Positions 1 through 35,890 of a stretch of 35,890 bases of DNA are shown piece after piece (position 1 is the stretch's first letter; each line of letters starts with the position of its first letter). The notes beneath the pieces were generated by a model. It made no database searches. It saw only the letters and a list, made by a program, of their open reading frames with translations, and was not told where the DNA came from. This DNA is from a virus. Its lineage: Duplodnaviria > Heunggongvirae > Uroviricota > Caudoviricetes. The translations under genes and the position numbers were made by a program. The stretch lies in IMG/VR virus record IMGVR_UViG_2909303794_000009. One strand, given 5' to 3'.

Positions 1-585
1 CTATTCGATAATGGGTACTGTTGGCCATTCAATATCCGGTGCAGTTGTTGTATTAACACGGTTCAGCAACACCCGATATTTTTTCCAGGCTTCCAGCAAT
101 GAGGTTTCTTCCTCCGTTGCGATCTCCAGATCTACAGCATCCTGAAGTGGCGCTATATGCTCACTGGCTACCTGCATCAGGCTGTTTTTTGTTTCTTCCG
201 CCTCCCGGATCCGGAACAGTTTTTCTGCTTCCGTATCCTTCACCCAGGCTGTGCCGTTCCACTTCTGATATTCCCCTTCCGGCGATAACCAGGTGACATT
301 TTCCGGTAACGAGCCAAGTTCAGAAATAAATAACGCGTCGCCGGAAGCCACGTCATAGACGGTTTTTCCCCGATGATCTTCAACGAGATGCCACGATGCC
401 TCATCACTGTTGAAAACAGCCACAAAGCCAGCCGGAATATCTGGCGGTGCAATATCGGTACTGTTTGCTGGCAGACCTGTATGAGGCGGAATATATGCGT
501 CACCTTCACCAATAAATTCATTAGTTCCGGCCAGCAGATTATAAATTTTTATGGTCCGTGCTTGTTCACTCATTCTGAATGCCAT
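1..585 (-). CDS. tfa: Tail fiber assembly protein (lambda Tfa-like, 194 aa)
   Basis: ORF-track protein [24 protein letters not shown]... matches lambda Tfa as I recall it in length and sequence; start overlaps the stf stop by 1 nt (ATGA). Confidence 0.9.
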
Positions 586-10551: not shown

Positions 10552-13109
10552 CGTCCACCTCCGGAGAACAGGCCACCATCACGCATCTGTGTCTGAATTT
10601 CATCACGGGCACCCTTGCGGGCCATGTCATACACCGCCTTCAGAGCAGCCGGACCTATCTGCCCGTTCGTGCCGTCGTTGTTAATCACCACATGGTTATT
10701 CTGCTCAAACGTCCCGGACGCCTGCGACCGGCTGTCTGCCATGCTGCCCGGTGTACCGACATAACCGCCGGTGGCATAGCCGCGCATCAGCCGGTAAAGA
10801 TTCCCCACGCCAATCCGGCTGGTTGCCTCCTTCGTGAAGACAAACTCACCACGGTGAACAATCCCCGCTGGCTCATATTTGCCGCCGGTTCCCGTAAATC
10901 CTCCGGTTGCAAAATGGAATTTCGCCGCAGCGGCCTGAATGGCTGTACCGCCTGACGCGGATGCTCCACCACTGGCAGCACCGCCAATGGCGCTGCCGAT
11001 ACTCCCGACAATCCCCACCATTGCCTGCTTAAGCAGAATTTCTGTCATCATGGACAGCACGGAACGGGTGAAGCTGCGCCAGTTCTGCTCACTGCCGGTC
11101 AGCATCGCTGCCATATTCTGTGCAATACCATCAAAGGTCTGCGTGGCTGCACTTTTTACCTGCGACATACTGTCCGTGGCGCTCTCTTCCCACTCACTCC
11201 AGCCGGACTTCAGGCCTGCCATCCAGCTCCCGCGAAGCTGGTCTTCAGCCGCCCAGGTCTTTTTCTGCTCTGACATGACGTTATTCAGCGCCAGCGGATT
11301 ATCGCCATACTGTTCCTTCAGGCGCTGTTCCGTGGCTTCCCGTTCTGCCTGCCGGTCAGTCAGCCCCCGGCTTTTCGCATCAATGGCGGCCCGTTTTGCC
11401 CGTTGCTGCTGTGCGAATTTATCCGCCTGCTGCGCCAGCGCGTTCAGGCGCTCCTGATACGTAACCTTGTCGCCAAGTGCAGCCAGCTGGCGTTTGTACT
11501 CCAGCGTCTCATCTTTATGCGCCAGCAGGGATTTCTCCTGTGCGGACAGCTGGCGACGTTGTGCCGCCTCCTCCAGTACCGCGAACTGACTTTCTGCCTT
11601 CCACAAATCCCGGCGCTGCTGGCTGATTTTCTCATTCGCTCCGGCATGCTTCTCCAGCGTCCGGAGTTCTGCCTGAAGCGTCAGCAGGGCAGCATGAGCA
11701 CTGTCTTCCTGACGATCGCCCGCAGACACCTTCACGCCGGACTGTTTCGGCTTTTTCAGCGTCGCTTCATAATCCTTTTTCGCCGCCGCCATCAGCGTGT
11801 TGTAATCCGCCTGCAGGATTTTCCCGTCTTTCAGTGCCTTGTTCAGTTCTTCCTGACGGGCGGTATATTTCTCCAGCGGCGTCTGCAGCCGTTCGTAAGC
11901 CTTCTGCGCCTCTTCGGTATATTTCAGCCGTGACGCTTCGGTATCGCTCTGCTGCTGCGCATTTTTGTCCTGTTGAGTCTGCTGCTCAGCCTTCTTTCGG
12001 GCGGCTTCAAGCGCAAGACGGGTCTTTTCACGATCATCCCAGTAACGCGCCCGCGCTTCATCGTTAACAAAATAGTCATCCTTGCGCAGATTCCAGATGT
12101 CGTCTGCTTTCTTAAACGCAGCCTCTGCCTTAATCAGCATCTCCTGCGCGGTATCAGGACGACCAATATCCAGCACCGCATCCCACATGGATTTGAATGC
12201 CCGCGCTGTCCTGTCTGCCCAGGTCTCCAGCGTGCCCATGTTCTCTTTCAGGCGGCGGGTCTGGTCATCAAACCCTTTCGTTGCGGCTTCGTTCGCCGCC
12301 TGCAATGCCCCGGCTTCATCGCCGGAACGCTGCAACTGAGCAACATACGCAATCTGCTCCGCCGTCACGTTATGGAACTGGCGCGCCATCGCCGTCAGCC
12401 CCGACGTCGGGTCAGTGGTCAGCTTCCCGAAGGCTTCAGCGACCTTGTCCACCTCCACACCGGATGCAGAAGAGAAACGCGCCACACTCTGGCTGATGGA
12501 CGCAATCTGAGCCTCACCGCTTACCCCCGCCTTAACCAGTGCACTGAGTGACTCGCTGGTCTGGTTAAACGTCAGCCCTGCCGCCTGCCCGGCTCTGGAC
12601 AGGACCAGCATACGATCTGCCGTCAGACCCGACTGATTACCGGAAAGGACCAGCGTTTTGTTGAAATCGGACAGGGTTGAGTTACCCTGATACCAGGCAT
12701 ACGCCAGCGCACCGGTCGCCACCGCCAGCGAGGTGGCCCCGACCATCGGCAGGGTGATCGCACCGGCAAGCCCCCGGAACATGGGGATCATCCCGCCGAA
12801 GGAGTCCTTAACCTGACCACCCTGTTGCAGCAGGATCAGCCACGGGCTTTGCCCGCCTGCAAGCTGCGTGGCCACGTCGGTGAACTGTGCAGGCAGCATA
12901 CGCATGGCGGCTTTATACTGCCCGACGGAAATCCCCGCTTTCTGTGCAGCCAGCGCCTGTCGGCTCAGCGACTGTTCAACGACTGCCGCTGTTTTTTTCG
13001 CATCAGTTTCCGTACCGGAAAAATGACGCCTGACTCTGGCCATCTGCTCGTCAAATCTGGCCGCATCCAGACTTAAATCAACGACCAGATCGCCTACCGG
13101 TTCAGCCAT
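10548..13109 (-). CDS. H: Tail tape measure protein H (853 aa)
   Basis: 853 aa, same as lambda H; coiled-coil-rich middle (QQ/KK/EE repeats), Gly-rich C-terminal part; follows G/T. Confidence 0.9.
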   Translation of the reverse strand: MAEPVGDLVVDLSLDAARFDEQMARVRRHFSGTETDAKKTAAVVEQSLSRQALAAQKAGISVGQYKAAMRMLPAQFTDVATQLAGGQSPWLILLQQGGQVKDSFGGMIPMFRGLAGAITLPMVGATSLAVATGALAYAWYQGNSTLSDFNKTLVLSGNQSGLTADRMLVLSRAGQAAGLTFNQTSESLSALVKAGVSGEAQIASISQSVARFSSASGVEVDKVAEAFGKLTTDPTSGLTAMARQFHNVTAEQIAYVAQLQRSGDEAGALQAANEAATKGFDDQTRRLKENMGTLETWADRTARAFKSMWDAVLDIGRPDTAQEMLIKAEAAFKKADDIWNLRKDDYFVNDEARARYWDDREKTRLALEAARKKAEQQTQQDKNAQQQSDTEASRLKYTEEAQKAYERLQTPLEKYTARQEELNKALKDGKILQADYNTLMAAAKKDYEATLKKPKQSGVKVSAGDRQEDSAHAALLTLQAELRTLEKHAGANEKISQQRRDLWKAESQFAVLEEAAQRRQLSAQEKSLLAHKDETLEYKRQLAALGDKVTYQERLNALAQQADKFAQQQRAKRAAIDAKSRGLTDRQAEREATEQRLKEQYGDNPLALNNVMSEQKKTWAAEDQLRGSWMAGLKSGWSEWEESATDSMSQVKSAATQTFDGIAQNMAAMLTGSEQNWRSFTRSVLSMMTEILLKQAMVGIVGSIGSAIGGAASGGASASGGTAIQAAAAKFHFATGGFTGTGGKYEPAGIVHRGEFVFTKEATSRIGVGNLYRLMRGYATGGYVGTPGSMADSRSQASGTFEQNNHVVINNDGTNGQIGPAALKAVYDMARKGARDEIQTQMRDGGLFSGGGR

Positions 13110-13536
13110 ACCGGACTCCTCCTGCGATCCCTTCTGATACTGTCATCAGCATTACGTCATCCTCCGTCATGTCCGCCACATCCGGGGAAGCGGGGATAAC
13201 TTCATTCCCGTCCGGGCCAAAGCGGACACCTCCGGCAAGCCCTGCCGCTTTCTGCATCAGCACATCATCTTCAGGCTCTTCGTCAGCCTCGCGCCGGTTA
13301 AGCAGACTGAAATCCAGCGGATGCATATCCGGATCGCTGAAAAACAGGCTGAGCACGGTGTACGTCAGCCCGGAAAAGTGCATATCCAGCAGAACATCAT
13401 GAAAATAATGGGTACTGTAAAAGCGGTGCCAGTCGGCATACTCCGTGGATGACATCCCGGCAAGCATGGCACGCCAGTCGGGTCGCCCCATCTCACGCGC
13501 CAGTTTCAGGGCAAAACTCAGCTCACCGTCGAACAC
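13102..13536 (-). CDS. T: Tail assembly chaperone T frame (made as a G-T fusion by -1 frameshift)
   Basis: 144-codon frame MFDGELSFALKLAREMGRPDW... overlapping the 3' end of G by 19 nt; lambda T-like. Confidence 0.8.
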   Translation of the reverse strand: MFDGELSFALKLAREMGRPDWRAMLAGMSSTEYADWHRFYSTHYFHDVLLDMHFSGLTYTVLSLFFSDPDMHPLDFSLLNRREADEEPEDDVLMQKAAGLAGGVRFGPDGNEVIPASPDVADMTEDDVMLMTVSEGIAGGVRYG

Positions 13537-13940
13537 TTTCCCGCAAAAACAGGCTCTGCAGGCCCGGCGTCCTCTGTCTGTTCAGGGGCATTATTCACCA
13601 CAAACTCATACATACCGGACAGCCGGTACACCACGTTTTCAGCATGAGAAATTGCCTCCGTGGGCCAGGTGGTAAGCACTTCCTGCTCAATTTGTTTAAC
13701 GGCTTCATTCATGGACGGCATCTGCGTCTTCTGCGGATGGTTATGCCACAGGGACATCGCCACCACAAAAGCGCCGGTTCTGATGGCGTCTTCCACAGTA
13801 AACTTCCGATTGCTGTCTGACTCCGCCTGTTCTGCCTGCCGTTTCATCAGGGCGAGATGCTCAATACGCTGCAGGGCTGACAGTTCAGAAAGCGTGACGG
13901 TCACACCGTTATGTTCAAATGATTCGGTTTTCAGGAACAT
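13518..13940 (-). CDS. G: Tail assembly chaperone G (140 aa)
   Basis: MFLKTESFEHNGVTVTLSELSALQRIEHLALMKRQAEQ... lambda G-like; ends just past the slippery site. Confidence 0.85.
   Translation of the reverse strand: MFLKTESFEHNGVTVTLSELSALQRIEHLALMKRQAEQAESDSNRKFTVEDAIRTGAFVVAMSLWHNHPQKTQMPSMNEAVKQIEQEVLTTWPTEAISHAENVVYRLSGMYEFVVNNAPEQTEDAGPAEPVFAGKCSTVS
13536..13542 (-). promoter_or_regulatory. Programmed -1 ribosomal frameshift slippery heptamer GGGAAAG (G to G-T)
   Basis: Minus-strand GGGAAAG lies a few codons before the G stop, exactly where the T frame opens; conserved lambdoid G-T frameshift arrangement. Confidence 0.6.
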
Positions 13941-23845: not shown

Positions 23846-24079
23846 ATGTCAACGAAGAACAGAACCCGCAGAACAACAACCCGCAACATCCGCTTTCCTA
23901 ACCAAATGATTGAACAAATTAACATCGCTCTTGATCAAAAAGGGTCCGGGAATTTCTCAGCCTGGGTCATTGAAGCCTGCCGCCGGAGACTGTGCTCAGA
24001 AAAAAGAGTTTCTCCTGAAGCAAACAAAGAAAAGAGTGACATTACTGAATTGCTCAGAAAACAGATCAGACCAGATTGA
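23846..24079 (+). CDS. Small basic protein with ribbon-helix-helix-like N-terminal region (lambda right-end small ORF-like), 77 aa
   Basis: MSTKNRTRRTTTRNIRFPNQMIEQINIALDQKGSGNFSAWVIEACRRRL... has a strand-helix-helix pattern like Arc/CopG; AT-rich; opposite strand to the late genes. Confidence 0.55.
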   Translation: MSTKNRTRRTTTRNIRFPNQMIEQINIALDQKGSGNFSAWVIEACRRRLCSEKRVSPEANKEKSDITELLRKQIRPD

Positions 24080-24120: not shown

Positions 24121-24546
24121 ATGGAAGGTACTACAATGGCTCAGGTTGCCATTTTTAAACAAATATTCGATAAAGTGCGAAATAATTTAAACTATCACTG
24201 GTTTTATTCTGAACTAAAACGTCACAATGTCTCACATTACATTTACTATTTAGCCACAGAGAATATTCATCTTGTTCTTGAAAACGATAATACGGTTTTA
24301 ATAAAAGGACAGGGTAAGGTTGTAAATGTAAGATTTTCAAAAAATAAATGCCTTATAGAAGCCACCTTAAAAGGATTCAAATCAGGAGAGTTATCATTTT
24401 ACGAATACAGGAAAAATCTTGCTACAGCAGGGGTTTTCAGATGGATTACAAATATCCACGAAAACAAAAGGTATTACTATACCTTTGATAATTCATTACT
24501 CTTTACTGAGAACATTCAGAACACTACACAAATATTTCCGCACTAA
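24121..24546 (+). CDS. DUF1398-like putative envelope protein (lambda right-end ORF / YbcV-like), 141 aa
   Basis: …[38 protein letters not shown]-terminus resembles the uncharacterised lambda ORF adjacent to cos; low GC; same strand as the preceding small ORF. Confidence 0.55.
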
Positions 24547-24832
24547 ATCATAACGTCCGGTTTCTTCCGTGCCAGAACCGGACTCGCTGGCATGATGAAA
24601 TATGTGTACCCGGTAACCCCGGTGTGCATCGTTTTTGATTATTCCCACACACTCGCGCAGAAGGAGTTCCCCGTCGGGCTACGGTCTCTGTTAATACGGG
24701 AATACGGCGACGATACAGCGCATGATGTGTCAGGCTTGAATACCTTTATCCTTTAAAAGGGATATCAGTTAAGTTATCCCGTGTAGGGTATAAGCCATTA
24801 TCAAGCCCACCCGTAGATAGGCTTTGTAATGG

Positions 24833-25090
24833 CTACTTCGCTTTTGCTTCCGCTCGCTTACGCCGGCGCTCTTCTTTCCTCTCGGCTTTTGCCATGTCCA
24901 TGAATGCCTGCATGATCGAGTTCCGCATCATGTAGCTAACAAAGTGATGATTGACACAGCCGTTGAGGCGCAGCTGCTCGCCAAACTCATCCACCGAGGC
25001 CAATGCTTCCATCATGCCCTTCTCACCTTTCATGAACTCTGAGAAGTCACGCCCCGCTCTGGAGGCGCATTCAATGACACGATCACTCAT
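24833..25090 (-). CDS. Hypothetical protein (85 aa), translationally coupled to the upstream KilA-N frame
   Basis: ATG overlaps the TGA of the preceding frame (ATGA); Lys/Arg/Glu-rich C-terminus; no family recognised. Confidence 0.4.
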   Translation of the reverse strand: MSDRVIECASRAGRDFSEFMKGEKGMMEALASVDEFGEQLRLNGCVNHHFVSYMMRNSIMQAFMDMAKAERKEERRRKRAEAKAK

Positions 25091-25583
25091 CCCGGAAGCC
25101 CGGGGATCGTAATCTGCAGCTGGTTAGCCAGGGAGTTAATCTCAGCGACCAACACTGGCTTCGTATAGCGCCATGCCGCCAGCCCTTGTCCGCAGAAGCT
25201 CGCCATATCTTTTTTCTGATCAAACTCATGACACTTCATATTGAGCTGTGCACTTAAGCTGTTGCGATGCTGAAGTTCTCCGGTGAAGTAGTCATCCAGG
25301 ACTTTATAGGCTGCATATTTAAATCCGGGGTTTAGCCATGCTGCATAATCATAAGCAACAAACTTCCCGCCATATGTTCCACCGTGTACACCGCGCTCAG
25401 TAAAAACACAGATTCGTGGTTTTTCTCCAGCTCGGCTAAGAACTCTTTGGTCTGCTTGTTTCGCAGGTAGTGGTACGGAGATTCAGATTCACTTTTACCA
25501 CTGGCTTTCCACATATCAGTGAGGCAGATCATGCCATCTTCACCGATACGAATTGGTTGATTGAAGAGGGTTAATGATTTCAT
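25087..25583 (-). pseudogene. KilA-N domain protein gene split by a frameshift
   Basis: Frame A (25332..25583) MKSLTLFNQPIRIGEDGMICLTDMWKASGK... continues in a second frame as …ERGVHGGTYGGKFVAYDYAAWLNPGFKYAAYKVLDDYF… (KilA-N signature); frames switch at an A5/T5 run near 25412-25416. Confidence 0.55.
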
Positions 25584-25699
25584 AGCGTGTACCTACTCTT
25601 TGAAATGAACCTTTGCCGCACAGGAAACCAGCCCACCGAGGCTCGCCAGCACTAACTGGTATCTTCAAAGGCCCATTCCAAAGGGGCAGGTTCGGTGTA

Positions 25700-25772
25700 A
25701 AAAAAACATGCGTTGCGGTACGCATTTATTGCAAAAAAGCCCCGCATCACGAGGCTCATTAAATGGACTTTG
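25700..25772 (-). terminator. Two tandem putative intrinsic terminators downstream of Rz
   Basis: Minus strand: GCCTCG-TGATG-CGGGGC followed by TTTTTTG, then ATGCGT-ACCGCA-ACGCAT followed by GTTTTTTTT. Confidence 0.45.
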
Positions 25773-25787
25773 TGATTTGCAAAAAAA

Positions 25788-26225
25788 TTATTTCAGGCAT
25801 TGCGTCCTGATGTACTCCTGCAGGTAGTTAACCTGCGCGGTTATCCTGTCGATTCCACTTCGGAGACGGTAATAATTGAGTTCAGCATCTGCTGTAAGTC
25901 TTGGGCTTTCTCCATCGCCCATGCTGCTGGCTCCGGTCTTTGACTTTGCACATGAGGCGGCGACTTGCAGCCGCTTACGCCCAGCAGAAACATCATCACG
26001 GAGACTTTCGATAGTCGCGTTAGCATCAGCAAGCTCCTTTGTATATCTGGCGTCGAGTTCTGCTACGTCACGTTGACGCTTCTGCATGTCAGCGATGATG
26101 GATGTGGCTTTGTCGCGCTGGGCTTTGTAGGCGATGGCGTTATCACGGTAATGATTAACAGCCCATAACAGGCAGACGATGATGCAGATAACCAGAGCGG
26201 AGATAATCGCGGTGACTCTGCTCAT
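25788..26225 (-). CDS. Rz: Spanin inner-membrane subunit Rz (145 aa)
   Basis: [30 protein letters not shown]... N-terminal TM helix plus coiled coil; lambda Rz-like; 4-nt overlap with R. Confidence 0.85.
25841..26032 (-). CDS. Rz1: Spanin outer-membrane lipoprotein Rz1, embedded in the +1 frame of Rz
   Basis: 63-aa nested ORF with signal/lipobox …[10 protein letters not shown] followed by a Pro-containing segment; same embedded architecture as lambda Rz/Rz1. Confidence 0.7.
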
Positions 26226-27113: not shown

Positions 27114-28166
27114 TTATTTCCCCACCAGTTCACTTACCTCTTTCACCGTCTGATTAAACCGCTCTGACTCAAGTTCAACACCTAACGCCCGACGCCCCAG
27201 CGCCATTGCCGCTTTTATTGTGGAACCGGATCCCATAAAGAAATCAGCAACCAGATCGCCTTGTCGACTACTGGCACTGATTATTTGCCGGAGCATATCC
27301 GCAGGCTTCTCACACGGATGTTTACCCGGGTAGAACTGAACGGGTTTATGCGTCCAGACATCGGTATAAGGCACGGAAACTGATACGGAGAAATAGCGCC
27401 GGAGAGTTTTAAACTCATCCAGCAATTCAGAATATTTGCGATTCAGTGAATCATAAGATGCCACCAGCTGGTGGTGTGGTTGTTCCAGTTGTTGTTCCTG
27501 AAATTTCTCTGCCGCTATACGGGAAAACAGTGCCTGCAACTTCCGGTAGTCAGCCTCATTCGGCAACTGCCACTGACTGGCACCAAACCAGTGGGAAACC
27601 ATATTTTTCTTACCAGTGGCTTCGGCAATCTGTTTTGCCGTTATACCCAGTTCGGCACGAGCATCCCTGAAATACGAAATCAGCGGTGCCATTATGTGCT
27701 GTTTGAGTTGACTTTCTTTTGCCGCATAGCCGTCACTTTTGCCGCGATATGGTCCCTGGTAATGTTCAGCAAACAGAACGCGTTCTGTTGCGGGAAAATA
27801 TGCGCGCAGACTTTCTTTATTACACCCGTTCCATCGTCCGGACGGCTTCGCCCAGATAATATGGTTAAGAACGTTGAAACGTTCACGCATCATGATCTCG
27901 ATATCAGATGCGAGGCGATGTCCACAGAACAGGTAAAGGCTTCCGGCAGGTTTCAGCACCCGCCAGAACTGAGCCAGACAGTGGTCCAGCCACTTCAGGT
28001 AATCTTCGTCCCCTTTCCACTGATTGTCCCAACCGTTGGGTTTCACCTTGAAGTACGGCGGATCGGTAACAATCAGGTCAATGGAATCATCAGGCAGGGA
28101 CTGAATAAAATGCAGGCAATCAGCGTTGATTAAATCAACACTGTTTATTTTCACAGTATTTTTCAT
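27114..28166 (-). CDS. Orphan DNA methyltransferase (N6-adenine/N4-cytosine type, beta-class motif order), 350 aa
   Basis: N-terminal catalytic motif IV DPPY (…IDLIVTDPPYF…) and C-terminal SAM-binding motif I (…DFFMGSGST…); no adjacent restriction endonuclease gene. Confidence 0.85.
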   Translation of the reverse strand: MKNTVKINSVDLINADCLHFIQSLPDDSIDLIVTDPPYFKVKPNGWDNQWKGDEDYLKWLDHCLAQFWRVLKPAGSLYLFCGHRLASDIEIMMRERFNVLNHIIWAKPSGRWNGCNKESLRAYFPATERVLFAEHYQGPYRGKSDGYAAKESQLKQHIMAPLISYFRDARAELGITAKQIAEATGKKNMVSHWFGASQWQLPNEADYRKLQALFSRIAAEKFQEQQLEQPHHQLVASYDSLNRKYSELLDEFKTLRRYFSVSVSVPYTDVWTHKPVQFYPGKHPCEKPADMLRQIISASSRQGDLVADFFMGSGSTIKAAMALGRRALGVELESERFNQTVKEVSELVGK

Positions 28167-28699: not shown

Positions 28700-29084
28700 A
28701 TTTTTTACGTACGTAAACCTCTAAACAATATTTGTGAGAATGATATCGAGTGTTCAAAACACCACCACAATCACATAAGGAAAAATAAACAAATAATCAT
28801 TAAATAATTTCCGACGTTATTTTCAGTGAATTTAAATTAAAGAGATGAATTATAGAACACTTATAAATAACAACCTTTAATATAATTTAGCTACCAAATT
28901 TATTTTCTTTCAGAGAATAGTCATGCACAGCATGCATTAGAAAAAGTTCAGATAAAAATAGAGATCTAGATCACAATTTAAATAAGAATCTAAAACTTAC
29001 ATCTTGAATTAATCACATTGATTAGATGAATATTTGTCGCGCAGGGCATCATTTTTTAATAAATGTTCAAAAAAAGGTCTCACG
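28700..29084 (+). promoter_or_regulatory. AT-rich upstream regulatory region of the porin gene
   Basis: ~380 bp of very low GC with repeated TTTA/ACAT-type motifs (e.g. ACTTACATCTTGAATTAATCACATTGATTAGATG) resembling porin promoter/OmpR-box regions; no -10/-35 assigned. Confidence 0.3.
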
Positions 29085-30167
29085 ATGAAAAAATTAACAG
29101 TGGCAATTTCTGCTGTAGCTGCATCAGTACTGATGGCGATGTCTGCTCAGGCAGCTGAAATTTATAATAAAGACAGTAACAAGCTGGATCTGTACGGGAA
29201 AGTTAATGCTAAGCACTACTTCTCCTCTAATGATGCAGATGATGGTGATACTACTTATGCCCGTCTTGGCTTCAAAGGTGAAACCCAAATCAACGATCAA
29301 CTGACTGGTTTCGGTCAGTGGGAATATGAATTCAAAGGCAACCGCGCTGAATCTCAAGGTTCCTCCAAAGATAAAACCCGTCTTGCCTTCGCTGGCCTGA
29401 AATTCGGTGACTACGGCTCCATCGATTATGGCCGTAACTACGGTGTAGCATACGATATTGGTGCATGGACCGACGTTCTGCCAGAATTCGGTGGCGATAC
29501 CTGGACCCAAACAGATGTATTCATGACTGGTCGCACCACAGGTGTTGCAACTTATCGTAACAACGACTTCTTTGGTCTGGTTGATGGCCTGAACTTTGCA
29601 GCTCAGTATCAGGGCAAAAATGACCGAAATGAAGTAACTGAAGCTAATGGCGATGGTTTCGGTTTCTCAACTACTTATGAGTATGAAGGATTCGGCGTGG
29701 GTGCAACCTATGCTAAATCTGATCGCACTAATAATCAGGTTATCCTCGGTAACAACGGTCTGAATGCTTCTGGTAAAAATGCTGAAGTATGGGCAGCTGG
29801 TCTGAAATATGATGCGAACAACATCTATCTGGCCACCACCTATTCTGAAACCCAGAACATGACTGTTTTTGGTAATAACCATATTGCCAACAAAGCACAA
29901 AACTTCGAAGCTGTTGCACAATATCAGTTCGACTTCGGCCTGCGTCCATCCGTTGCTTACCTGCATTCTAAAGGAAAAGACTTGGGTGTTTGGGGTGATC
30001 AGGACCTGGTTGAATATGTTGATGTAGGTGCAACCTATTACTTCAACAAAAATATGTCCACTTTTGTTGACTACAAAATCAACCTGATTGATAAGAGCGA
30101 TTTCACGAAAGCATCTGGCGTTGCTACCGATGATATCGTTGCTGTAGGTATGGTTTACCAGTTCTAA
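29085..30167 (+). CDS. nmpC: Outer membrane general porin, NmpC/Lc/OmpC-family (360 aa with signal peptide)
   Basis: [40 protein letters not shown]… signal peptide and mature N-terminus, C-terminal …VAVGMVYQF; the ORF track begins 17 codons earlier at an alternative start codon. Confidence 0.85.
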
Positions 30168-31530: not shown

Positions 31531-31872
31531 CTAAGCATTATTGGCCTCCTGCATCAGGAGAAAGACAATCATGGCGGCGCGGAGAGGTCTGGTATCAAAT
31601 ATTGGGCTTACGCCTTTTGCATCCACACACCATTCAGTTAACTGGTCTAAGATAGAAATCCTGTATTTCTCAATAATCGGCCATGAAGCGCTCGGATCAT
31701 TGCAGTAGTCAGGCAAATGATTTAATGGCTCAAAAGTTGTATCAGCATTTCCGTAATACCATTTGTTGGTGTTATTCCCTGATGTTTCCGGTTTACTTGC
31801 CCAAAGGCCTTTAAAAATTATGTCTCCTACCATTCTGTTAATTTCAAAATCACTTAACTGTGAATAATCCAT
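31531..31872 (-). CDS. Hypothetical nin-region phage protein (113 aa from MDYSQL start)
   Basis: ORF-track frame 31531..31914; GAGGAA RBS fits the second ATG ([17 protein letters not shown]…); no family recognised; ~110 bp from the IS left end. Confidence 0.45.
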
Positions 31873-32037
31873 TGTCATTTCCTCGCACGATATCTTAGCC
31901 ACCGGATATCCCACAGGTGAGCTGTGTAATTGAAGGTTTTTACGTCAGATTCTTTTGGGATTGGCTTGCGTTTATTTCTGGAGTGAACCGCCCCGGGAAT
32001 CCTGGAGACTAAACTCCCTGAGAAAGAGGTAAACAGG

Positions 32038-32364
32038 ATGACTAAAAATACACGTTTTTCCCCCGAGGTCCGTCAACGGGCAGTTCGTATGGTTCTGGAA
32101 AGTCAGGGCGAATATGACTCTCAATGGGCGGCAATTTGTTCCATTGCCCCAAAGATTGGCTGTACACCAGAGACTCTGCGTGTGTGGGTTCGTCAGCATG
32201 AGCGGGATACCGGGAGTGGTGATGGTGGACTCACCACCGCTGAACGTCAGCGTCTGAAAGAGCTGGAACGTGAAAATCGTGAACTGCGCCGCAGTAACGA
32301 TATCCTTCGCCAGGCTTCCGCTTATTTTGCGAAGGCGGAGTTCGACCGCCTCTGGAAAAAATAA
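32038..32364 (+). CDS. IS3-family transposase OrfA (HTH, 108 aa)
   Basis: [59 protein letters not shown]… recognised as IS629-group OrfA; ends in an A-rich run (A AAA AAT AA) overlapping the orfB start. Confidence 0.85.
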
Positions 32365-33251
32365 TGCCGCTGCTGGATAAGCTGCGTGAGCAGTACGGGG
32401 TCGGACCGGTATGCAGTGAACTGCATATTGCCCCGTCAACGTATTACCACTGTCAGCAACAGCGACATCATCCTGATAAACGCAGTGCCCGTGCTCAGCG
32501 CGATGACTGGCTGAAGAGAGAGATACAGCGCGTATACGATGAAAATCATCAGGTGTACGGTGTGCGTAAAGTCTGGCGCCAGTTGTTACGCGAAGGTATC
32601 AGGGTGGCCAGATGTACAGTGGCGCGCCTCATGGCGGTTATGGGACTTGCCGGTGTTCTCCGGGGTAAAAAGGTCCGTACTACCGTCAGCCGGAAAGCCG
32701 TTTCCGCAGGCGACCGCGTAAACCGTCAGTTCGTGGCAGAACGTCCTGACCAGCTGTGGGTGGCTGATTTTACTTACGTCAGCACATGGCAGGGCTTCGT
32801 CTATGTGGCGTTCATCATTGATGTGTTTGCCGGATGTATCGTGGGGTGGCGAGTCTCATCGTCTATGGAAACGACATTCGTGCTGGATGCACTGGAGCAG
32901 GCGTTGTGGGCCCGTCGGCCGTCCGGCACAGTCCATCACAGTGATAAAGGTTCTCAGTATGTATCACTGGCCTATACGGAGCGACTAAAAGAAGCAAAAC
33001 TGCTGGCATCAACAGGGAGTACAGGTGACTCGTATGACAACGCGATGGCGGAGAGCATCAATGGTCTTTACAAAGCGGAGGTAATACACCGTAAGAGCTG
33101 GAAAAACCGTGCAGAAGTGGAACTGGCCACACTCACGTGGGTGGACTGGTATAACAATCGACGATTGCTGGGAAGGCTGGGTCATATCCCTCCGGCAGAA
33201 GCAGAAAAAGCTTATTATGCTTCCATCAGAAACGATGATCTGGCAGCCTGA
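32364..33251 (+). CDS. IS3-family transposase OrfB (DDE integrase core, 295 aa)
   Basis: …LWVADFTYVSTWQGFVYVAFIIDVFAGCIVGW…HSDKGSQYVS…DNAMAESINGLYKAEVI… DDE-type catalytic core. Confidence 0.85.
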   Translation: MPLLDKLREQYGVGPVCSELHIAPSTYYHCQQQRHHPDKRSARAQRDDWLKREIQRVYDENHQVYGVRKVWRQLLREGIRVARCTVARLMAVMGLAGVLRGKKVRTTVSRKAVSAGDRVNRQFVAERPDQLWVADFTYVSTWQGFVYVAFIIDVFAGCIVGWRVSSSMETTFVLDALEQALWARRPSGTVHHSDKGSQYVSLAYTERLKEAKLLASTGSTGDSYDNAMAESINGLYKAEVIHRKSWKNRAEVELATLTWVDWYNNRRLLGRLGHIPPAEAEKAYYASIRNDDLAA

Positions 33252-33295
33252 GTTCACAGATAAAACACTCTCCAGGAAAACCGGGGCGGTTCATA

Positions 33296-33423
33296 TTCCC
33301 TCCTCCGGTTAAGGATGGAAGAGAGTATCTGTTCCACGAATCAGCGGTAAAGGTTGACTTAAATCGACCAGTAACAGGTAGCCTTTTGAAGAGGATCAGA
33401 AATGGGAAGAAGGCGAAGTCATG
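33296..33423 (+). pseudogene. xis: Excisionase xis, 5'-truncated remnant (C-terminal ~42 codons only)
   Basis: Frame immediately after the IS right end reads FPPPVKDGREYLFHESAVKVDLNRPVTGSLLKRIRNGKKAKS*, the lambda Xis C-terminus, with its stop overlapping the int start; the N-terminal ~30 codons are absent. Confidence 0.7.
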
Positions 33424-34472
33424 AGCGCCGGGATTTACCCCCTAACCTTTATATAAGAAACAATGGATATTACTGCTACAGGGACCCAAGGACGGGTAAA
33501 GAGTTTGGATTAGGCCGAGACAGGCGAATCGCAATCACTGAAGCTATACAGGCCAACATTGAGTTATTTTCAGGACACAAACACAAGCCTCTGACAGCGA
33601 GAATCAACAGTGATAATTCCGTTACGTTACATTCATGGCTTGATCGCTACGAAAAAATCCTGGCCAGCAGAGGAATCAAGCAGAAGACACTCATAAATTA
33701 CATGAGCAAAATTAAAGCAATAAGGAGGGGTCTGCCTGATGCTCCACTTGAAGACATCACCACAAAAGAAATTGCGGCAATGCTCAATGGATACATAGAC
33801 GAGGGCAAGGCGGCATCAGCCAAGTTAATCAGATCAACACTGAGCGATGCATTCCGAGAGGCTATAGCTGAAGGCCATATAACAACAAACCCGGTCGCAG
33901 CCACTCGCGCTGCAAAATCAGAGGTAAGGAGATCAAGACTTACGGCTGACGAATACCTGAAAATTTATCAAGCAGCAGAATCATCACCATGTTGGCTTAG
34001 ACTTGCAATGGAACTGGCTGTTGTTACCGGGCAGCGAGTTGGTGATTTATGCGAAATGAAGTGGTCTGATATCGTAGATGGATATCTTTATGTCGAGCAA
34101 AGCAAAACAGGCGTAAAAATTGCCATCCCAACAACATTGCATGTTGATGCTCTCGGGATATCAATGAAGGAAACACTTGATAAATGCAAAAAGATTCTTG
34201 GCGGAGAAACCATAATTGCATCTACTCGTCGTGAACCGCTTTCATCCGGCACAGTATCAAGGTATTTTATGCGCGCACGAAAAGCATCAGGTCTCTCCTT
34301 CGAAGGGGATCCGCCAACCTTTCACGAGTTGCGCAGTTTGTCTGCAAGACTCTATGAGAAGCAGATAAGCGATAAATTTGCTCAACATCTTCTCGGGCAT
34401 AAGTCGGACACCATGGCATCACAGTATCGTGATGACAGAGGCAGGGAGTGGGACAAAATTGAAATCAAATAA
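33402..34472 (+). CDS. int: Integrase (tyrosine recombinase), lambda Int (356 aa)
   Basis: MGRRRSHERRDLPPNLYIRNNGYYCYRDPRTGKEFGLGRDRRIAITEAIQANIELF… essentially identical to lambda Int as recalled; followed by the att site. Confidence 0.95.
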   Translation: MGRRRSHERRDLPPNLYIRNNGYYCYRDPRTGKEFGLGRDRRIAITEAIQANIELFSGHKHKPLTARINSDNSVTLHSWLDRYEKILASRGIKQKTLINYMSKIKAIRRGLPDAPLEDITTKEIAAMLNGYIDEGKAASAKLIRSTLSDAFREAIAEGHITTNPVAATRAAKSEVRRSRLTADEYLKIYQAAESSPCWLRLAMELAVVTGQRVGDLCEMKWSDIVDGYLYVEQSKTGVKIAIPTTLHVDALGISMKETLDKCKKILGGETIIASTRREPLSSGTVSRYFMRARKASGLSFEGDPPTFHELRSLSARLYEKQISDKFAQHLLGHKSDTMASQYRDDRGREWDKIEIK

Positions 34473-34606: not shown

Positions 34607-35890
34607 GTGAACACATTTTCAGTTTCCCGTCTGGCGCTGGCATTGGCTTTTGGCGTGACGCTGACCGCCTGTAGCTCAACCCCGCCCGATCAACGTCCTT
34701 CTGATCAAACCGCGCCTGGTACCTCTTCTCGCCCGATTCTGTCGGCAAAAGAAGCGCAGAATTTCGATGCTCAACACTATTTTGCATCCCTGACACCAGG
34801 TGCTGCAGCGTGGAATCCTTCCCCGATTACCCTGCCTGCGCAACCTGACTTTGTTGTCGGCCCGGCGGGCACTCAAGGTGTAACGCATACCACGATTCAG
34901 GCGGCGGTAGATGCGGCAATTATCAAGCGTACCAACAAGCGCCAGTATATTGCCGTGATGCCTGGTGAGTATCAGGGAACGGTATATGTCCCTGCCGCTC
35001 CGGGTGGAATTACTCTGTACGGTACAGGTGAAAAACCGATTGATGTGAAGATTGGGCTTTCCCTTGATGGTGGCATGAGCCCTGCCGACTGGCGTCACGA
35101 CGTCAACCCGCGCGGCAAATATATGCCAGGTAAACCAGCGTGGTATATGTACGATAGCTGCCAGAGCAAACGCAGCGACAGTATCGGTGTTCTCTGCTCT
35201 GCGGTCTTCTGGTCACAAAACAATGGCCTGCAACTGCAAAATCTGACCATCGAAAACACGCTGGGCGATAGCGTAGATGCAGGTAACCATCCGGCGGTGG
35301 CACTGCGTACTGATGGTGACCAGGTACAGATTAACAACGTTAACATTCTCGGTCGTCAGAACACCTTCTTTGTCACCAACAGCGGTGTGCAGAACCGTCT
35401 GGAAACGAATCGTCAGCCGCGTACGCTGGTGACCAACAGCTACATTGAAGGGGATGTGGATATCGTTTCTGGTCGCGGCGCAGTGGTGTTCGATAACACC
35501 GAATTCCGCGTGGTGAACTCACGTACTCAGCAAGAAGCGTATGTGTTTGCACCGGCTACGCTGTCCAACATTTACTACGGTTTCCTCGCCGTAAACAGCC
35601 GTTTCAATGCTTTCGGTGATGGTGTGGCGCAACTGGGCCGCTCGCTGGATGTTGATGCCAATACCAACGGTCAGGTGGTGATCCGTGATAGCGCCATCAA
35701 CGAAGGTTTTAACACGGCTAAACCGTGGGCCGATGCGGTGATCTCTAATCGTCCGTTTGCGGGTAATACCGGCAGCGTAGATGATAACGACGAAATACAG
35801 CGCAATCTGAATGACACTAACTACAACCGCATGTGGGAATACAATAACCGCGGCGTGGGTAGTAAAGTGGTTGCAGAGGCGAAGAAGTAA
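34607..35890 (+). CDS. ybhC: Host outer-membrane lipoprotein YbhC (pectinesterase-like, 427 aa)
   Basis: (V/M)NTFSVSRLALALAFGVTLTAC lipoprotein signal; right-handed beta-helix-like repeats; recognised as the chromosomal gene flanking the lambda attachment site on the gal side. Confidence 0.85.
   Translation: MNTFSVSRLALALAFGVTLTACSSTPPDQRPSDQTAPGTSSRPILSAKEAQNFDAQHYFASLTPGAAAWNPSPITLPAQPDFVVGPAGTQGVTHTTIQAAVDAAIIKRTNKRQYIAVMPGEYQGTVYVPAAPGGITLYGTGEKPIDVKIGLSLDGGMSPADWRHDVNPRGKYMPGKPAWYMYDSCQSKRSDSIGVLCSAVFWSQNNGLQLQNLTIENTLGDSVDAGNHPAVALRTDGDQVQINNVNILGRQNTFFVTNSGVQNRLETNRQPRTLVTNSYIEGDVDIVSGRGAVVFDNTEFRVVNSRTQQEAYVFAPATLSNIYYGFLAVNSRFNAFGDGVAQLGRSLDVDANTNGQVVIRDSAINEGFNTAKPWADAVISNRPFAGNTGSVDDNDEIQRNLNDTNYNRMWEYNNRGVGSKVVAEAKK

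Follow-up and report, generated by a model that had tools for sequence, protein, structure and literature searches.

Among phage proteins, KilA-N and ORF11CD3 are part of a network of shuffling domains, the 'Bro network' (PMC10111431), and this context was all that we found in the literature on the two domains together, with no functional study of the pair. Genes equivalent to the one described here have been named KilA-N-ORF11CD3 in phage PhiR49_1, kilA in Stx phage 2851 and hkbK in HK620, where the partner gene is hkbL. The pair formed by the KilA-N gene and a short gene downstream of it, referred to here as ORF85, is widespread downstream of lambdoid lysis genes. By megablast, the segment was matched in 184 phage records, including Stx phages 1717 and 2851, JLK-2012 and HK620 as well as many Salmonella P22-like phages, and a 1101-nt query that included the flanks had a match in 2812 of 5426 complete E. 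coli genomes, 375 of them with at least 80% covered. At the annotated loci of E. coli TA8571 and phage PhiR49_1, one 498-nt CDS is followed by an overlapping 258-nt CDS, and the product of the former is called 'KilA-N domain-containing protein' (WP_000839225.1, TA8571) or 'KilA-N-ORF11CD3' (PhiR49_1).

In PHROGs, the KilA-N protein belongs to phrog_129, a 'transcriptional regulator' family, and ORF85 to phrog_875, which has no assigned function. A sequence search of PDB chains with the intact 165-aa protein and with ORF85 returned nothing significant, and neither matched an NCBIfam model. PADLOC returned a weak, partial match of the KilA-N protein to PDC-S22 (32 bits, residues 60-90), which we do not take as a sign of a role in defence.

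Here we describe a copy of this gene carried by a defective lambdoid prophage of E. coli in the 35,890-nucleotide stretch of DNA that was analysed (the window). Judged from comparison with its homologues, this copy is very probably a genuine and recent frameshift pseudogene that arose through ordinary prophage decay.

Results

A single missing base in a KilA-N/ORF11CD3 gene

The broken gene occupies window 25583-25087 on the minus strand, and the features that surround it are collected in Table 1. Reading the open frames of this strand confirmed what had been noticed from the sequence alone, namely that the KilA-N signature stands in a different frame from the N-terminal 83 codons. The 5' fragment comprises 59 native codons (M1-V59) and 24 out-of-frame codons before its stop, and its truncated product ends ...ESVFLLSAVYTVEHMAGSLLLMIMQHG. 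The second frame, which is open from about 25482 and contains ...VFTERGVHGGTYGGKFVAYDYAAWLNPGF..., has its first start codon only at the equivalent of M116.

Alignments with TA8571 and PhiR49_1 trace the change of frame to one base. On the coding strand, CTGTGGTTTTT in the intact homologues has become CTGTGTTTTT (in longer context, CTGTGGTTTTTAC in TA8571 and CTGTGTTTTTAC in the window), with one G of a GG doublet missing, so that GTG GTT (V59 V60) is reduced to GTG TT and, on the plus strand, CC to C. The sequence-only reading had set the shift within an A5/T5 run at ~25412-25416, with the homopolymer as its cause. The alignments instead place the loss at the doublet, next to an A5 run and outside any homopolymer; the length of that plus-strand A5 run (25402-25406), which lies directly beside the deletion, is unchanged, and so is that of the plus-strand T5 run at 25420-25424.

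Apart from this deletion, the only difference from TA8571 across 1101 nt is one intergenic SNP (25749). With the G put back, the product is exactly the commonest variant of 165 aa, WP_000839225.1, just as had been anticipated in the suggestion that a 1-nt indel might restore a protein of about this size. The locus therefore has the two marks of a frameshift pseudogene, orthologues that consist of one intact ORF and a copy that one indel restores. Compared codon by codon with the gene of PhiR49_1, the restored gene shows 19 synonymous differences and no non-synonymous one. The KilA-N/ORF11CD3 family is thus under purifying selection, and the window copy, having accumulated nothing beyond the deletion, broke very recently.

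Table 1 Coordinates of features in the window
Feature	Position	Strand	Basis or remark
5' fragment of the KilA-N/ORF11CD3 gene	25332-25583	-	ATG at 25583; 83 codons; stop 25334-25332
1-nt deletion site	25407-25408	-	Alignments with E. coli TA8571 and phage PhiR49_1
Out-of-frame remainder, residues 60-165 (KilA-N C-terminal half and ORF11CD3)	25087-25407	-	TGA 25089-25087
Intact 85-aa ORF (ORF85, phrog_875)	24833-25090	-	ATG overlaps the upstream TGA as ATGA, 25090-25087
Segment without lambda homology, holding the KilA-N/ORF85 cassette	24723-25965	-	blastn against lambda NC_001416
Terminator-like hairpin ATGCGTACCGCAACGCAT and T8, between Rz and the KilA-N gene	25700-25725	-	Consensus match only
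Rz-like spanin gene, closing the lysis cassette that precedes the KilA-N gene	25788-26225	-	Homologous-locus annotations
DUF1398 (YbcV/lambdap78-like) gene	24121-24546	+	Pfam, annotations
YlcI/YnfO (DUF3950) gene	23846-24079	+	Pfam, annotations
cos	about 23647		
DNA methyltransferase gene	27114-28166	-	N6_N4_Mtase
Porin ORF	29034-30167	+	Homologue annotation
ninX	31531-31914		
IS3-family element	31984-33293		Abuts ninX
orfA of the IS3-family element	32038-32364		
orfB of the IS3-family element	32364-33251		
ALIL frameshift pseudoknot in the IS3-family element	32319-32435		Rfam
Lambda-type int, full length	33402-34472		
ybhC	34607-35890		
gpG-like ORF	13518-13940		
gpT-like ORF	13102-13536		
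Lambda G-T heptamer GGGAAAG, in the overlap of the gpG-like and gpT-like ORFs	13535-13541	-	
IS009 (candidate small RNA)	44-242	-	Rfam, 225 bits

What the two frames encode

In the intact protein, Pfam places KilA-N (PF04383, gathering cut-off 23.8 bits) at residues 9-101 with 57.6 bits, covering profile positions 8-106, and ORF11CD3 (PF10549, gathering cut-off 25 bits) at residues 109-161 with 50.5 bits. The deletion cuts KilA-N after residue 59. Of the 107 positions of its profile, 7-56 are matched by the first frame of the window (39.2 bits) and 72-106 by the second, at 16 bits, which is below the cut-off; the whole domain is found in neither frame. ORF11CD3 is complete in the second frame (profile positions 1-54 of 54, 51.5 bits), a frame that is not translated from the start of the gene. 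By these profile matches, the locus is a KilA-N gene by descent that no longer encodes a complete domain.

Seen in this window in isolation, the two frames have the appearance of two separate genes, and the sequence-only reading had proposed looking to homologues to see whether this is the normal arrangement. It is refuted by the annotated intact homologues, all of which have one 498-nt CDS. In addition, a single Pfam domain, KilA-N, spans the junction, and the second frame would have to be entered without a start codon over its first part. The intact allele, represented by a 38-mer across the site, has matches in at least 120 viral contigs, and in 94 of the 103 complete copies in such contigs the gene is a single 165-aa ORF. 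We accordingly attach next to no probability to two genes being the normal state, and continue to treat the locus as one gene that has been interrupted.

Other sporadic knock-outs of the gene were seen in about 4 of 99 sampled copies in viral contigs, at other sites. Two (L022, L023) have a 2-nt deletion at an A6 run (codon ~124; equivalent to window 25211-25216), a lesion that is truly homopolymeric, and two (L006, L026) have a stop at codon 9.

A full-length protein might still be made from the interrupted gene if the ribosome shifted by -1 at GUG_UUU_UUA, or if RNA polymerase slipped on the T5/A5 run. A -1 shift on UUU_UUA would indeed restore the frame, altering only VF to FL and still giving 165 aa, and the full-length product would carry the junction ...NHESVFLTER... 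or ...NHESVFFTER... The sequence U_UUU_UUA is the slippery heptamer of HIV-1 gag-pol. In the window, however, the site has a G (G_UUU_UUA) where a canonical X_XXY_YYZ heptamer has its first X, and the P-site tRNA would therefore be unable to re-pair at the first position. Folding of the downstream 103 nt gave no signal of structure (MFE -25.2 kcal/mol; mean of shuffled sequences -25.17; z = -0.01), and an Rfam scan returned no match at the shift site, while the same scan detects the pseudoknot of the IS3-family element in the window. For transcriptional slippage, runs of 5 are too short to be efficient. Nor is the two-frame layout conserved, as it was found in one other genome against the predominant single ORF. 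Recoding of either kind is thus very unlikely, and an inactivated gene remains the preferred reading.

The downstream 85-aa ORF

The 85-aa ORF downstream of the lesion is intact and identical to WP_001283921.1, annotated in TA8571. Its start codon overlaps the upstream stop, as had been pointed out from the sequence alone; the same ATGA overlap is annotated in the intact homologues and recurs in almost every viral-contig copy, where the downstream ORF is 85-101 aa long. ORF85 has no well-spaced Shine-Dalgarno sequence, because the upstream G-run abuts the ATG. Since upstream ribosomes on the deletion allele terminate 242 nt before the normal stop/ATG overlap, ORF85 has probably lost its translational coupling and is probably expressed at a lower level.

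Modelled with AlphaFold2 from its single sequence, ORF85 is all-helical with a basic C-terminal helix (pLDDT 79), and Foldseek found no match for the model in the PDB (best E = 4.6). Homologues of ORF85 (loci L003-L122) range from 85 to 101 aa, and between the main length classes nothing varies but how many Ala-Lys dipeptides stand at the C-terminus, ...AEAKAK(AK)nVK. This pattern suggests expansion and contraction of a hexanucleotide repeat in the 3' end of the gene (window 24833-24860, minus strand).

The same deletion in the TUM9812 prophage

The deletion allele is rare: of the 312 complete E. coli genomes in which a 101-nt segment across the site has a match, TUM9812 alone matches it at 100%, and the other listed matches, at 99.0% over 102 nt, represent the intact allele. 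An exact scan for a 37-mer of the deletion allele gave 0 matches in the viral_contigs, species-representative genome_contigs and metagenome_contigs collections, a result that shows only the rarity of the allele. The allele is already known, in that RefSeq carries the TUM9812 copy (QVM98_RS27190, NZ_CP128926.1) with the flag 'frameshifted' from PGAP.

The TUM9812 prophage locus (NZ_CP128926.1 3527366-3558000) is closely related to that of the window, with 3 differing sites over 6263 nt and 100% identity over the 3' part of int and ybhC, from which it follows that both prophages lie at the lambda attachment site. Their later histories differ. In TUM9812, IS5 has entered the porin gene, the Nu1-to-J head and tail genes are lost, and cI, cro, O, bet and exo are kept; its int is truncated next to an IS3-family element that is 95.5% identical to the one in the window and is a different copy. 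In the window, a full-length lambda-type int lies next to ybhC, and nothing but the IS3-family element stands between ninX and int. The early, immunity and replication region from xis to P is missing, and the late region looks complete. On this comparison, TUM9812 is a separate genome of the same prophage lineage, and the two prophages exemplify divergent and opposite decay from one ancestor. In the window, an Rfam match to IS009 lies inside the tail fibre assembly gene.

These relations bear on whether the deletion is an error of sequencing or assembly, the genome really having GG and an intact gene. The site adjoins an A5/T5 run, the consensus of a long-read assembly errs most often by the loss of a single base, and the allele is absent from the three large contig collections. 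Against this, the identical deletion is present in an independent complete genome, with different IS insertions and deletions and with 3 SNPs in the shared 6.3 kb, and homopolymer lengths are unchanged. A systematic error common to both would be conceivable if the window and TUM9812 came from the same laboratory and platform, but it is made unlikely by the intact allele, which every further listed genome sharing this local sequence carries. An artefact is very unlikely, all told. That two separately decayed descendants share the deletion strongly supports a real lesion in the DNA, inherited from an ancestor common to the window and TUM9812 prophages.

Gene order and the position of lambda bor

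By blastn, the cassette lies in a segment without lambda homology that is bounded by lambda-like sequence on both sides: window 26680-25966 corresponds to lambda R-Rz at 85.6% identity and window 24722-24063 to lambdap78 at 82.5%. The segment replaces lambda 46247-46867, which comprises the end of Rz, bor and flank. A non-homologous insert between lambda-homologous segments is the form that a module takes in the lambdoid 'moron'/mosaic concept, and the module exchange at the bor position that had been proposed from the sequence is thereby upheld. The replacement is ordinary lambdoid mosaicism, common to hundreds of sequenced phages and prophages.

The late strand carries, in order, Q, a porin gene on the opposite strand, the DNA methyltransferase gene, holin, endolysin and Rz, followed by the hairpin with T8, the KilA-N pseudogene, ORF85, the opposite-strand DUF1398 and YlcI/YnfO genes, cos and Nu1. 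The methyltransferase gene, itself on the late strand, thus follows Q and precedes the holin gene. The porin gene looks intact in the window and is broken by IS elements in several related prophages. Because a search of the sequence preceding the KilA-N gene gave no sigma-70-like promoter on that strand, the KilA-N/ORF85 pair would most simply be expressed by Q-antiterminated late read-through, and the hairpin could insulate the cassette from all but Q-modified transcription.

Discussion

Three options had been left open by the sequence-only reading for this gene, and they have fared differently: a decayed gene is supported by the deletion shared with TUM9812, and neither a sequencing error nor slippage-prone expression is, the latter being at odds with the lack of a heptamer, of structure and of conservation. 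In the sequence of events that we propose, an accessory gene of a lambdoid prophage, whose product is normally 165 aa long, has had one G deleted at codons 59/60. Ribosomes that start at the usual ATG would now make 59 native and 24 unrelated residues, with KilA-N halved and ORF11CD3 left out. The allele would have been inherited from the ancestor common to the window and TUM9812 prophages, and the window prophage would already be without its xis-to-P region beside the IS3-family insertion. Because a defective prophage that has already lost this region is beyond phage-level selection, none would act on its KilA-N gene. Alternatively, the lesion may be other than neutral decay: domestication of the prophage may have selected for the inactivation of a KilA-N protein that is potentially toxic to the host, or a low level of -1 slippage at G_UUU_UUA may preserve a trickle of full-length protein (VF to FL). 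We consider these readings very unlikely.

For annotation, one frameshifted KilA-N/ORF11CD3 pseudogene followed by an intact 85-aa gene should be entered here in place of two short hypothetical proteins. The rare shared allele is also a convenient lineage marker that links the att-lambda prophages of the window and TUM9812, and it shows one ancestral prophage decaying along two routes. Beyond annotation the meaning is slight, and a broken copy gives no special handle on the function of the KilA-N/ORF85 pair.

Set beside known systems, the locus agrees with its sister QVM98_RS27190 in the deletion allele, which is identical, in the intergenic SNP at 25749 and in its location at att-lambda/ybhC. 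The difference lies in the surrounding prophages, since that of TUM9812 has lost head and tail genes and kept those for immunity and recombination, and that of the window shows the reverse. Compared with lambda, the cassette fills the slot that runs from Rz to the DUF1398 (lambdap78/YbcV) gene; there, however, lambda has bor, a lipoprotein gene on the opposite strand, whereas the window has two late-strand genes of the Bro/KilA-N network without sequence similarity to bor. The arrangement resembles the frameshift sites of IS3-family orfAB and lambda G-T in that two overlapping frames encode one protein, but it differs from them in having neither a canonical heptamer nor a stimulatory structure and in not being conserved, and genuine -1 frameshift examples of both types are present elsewhere in the window. 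Finally, the gene of WP_000839225.1 has a product identical to that of the restored window gene, and like it follows Rz and is coupled through ATGA to the partner WP_001283921.1; the window copy differs from it by the 1-nt deletion at codons 59/60, which prevents it from making the protein.
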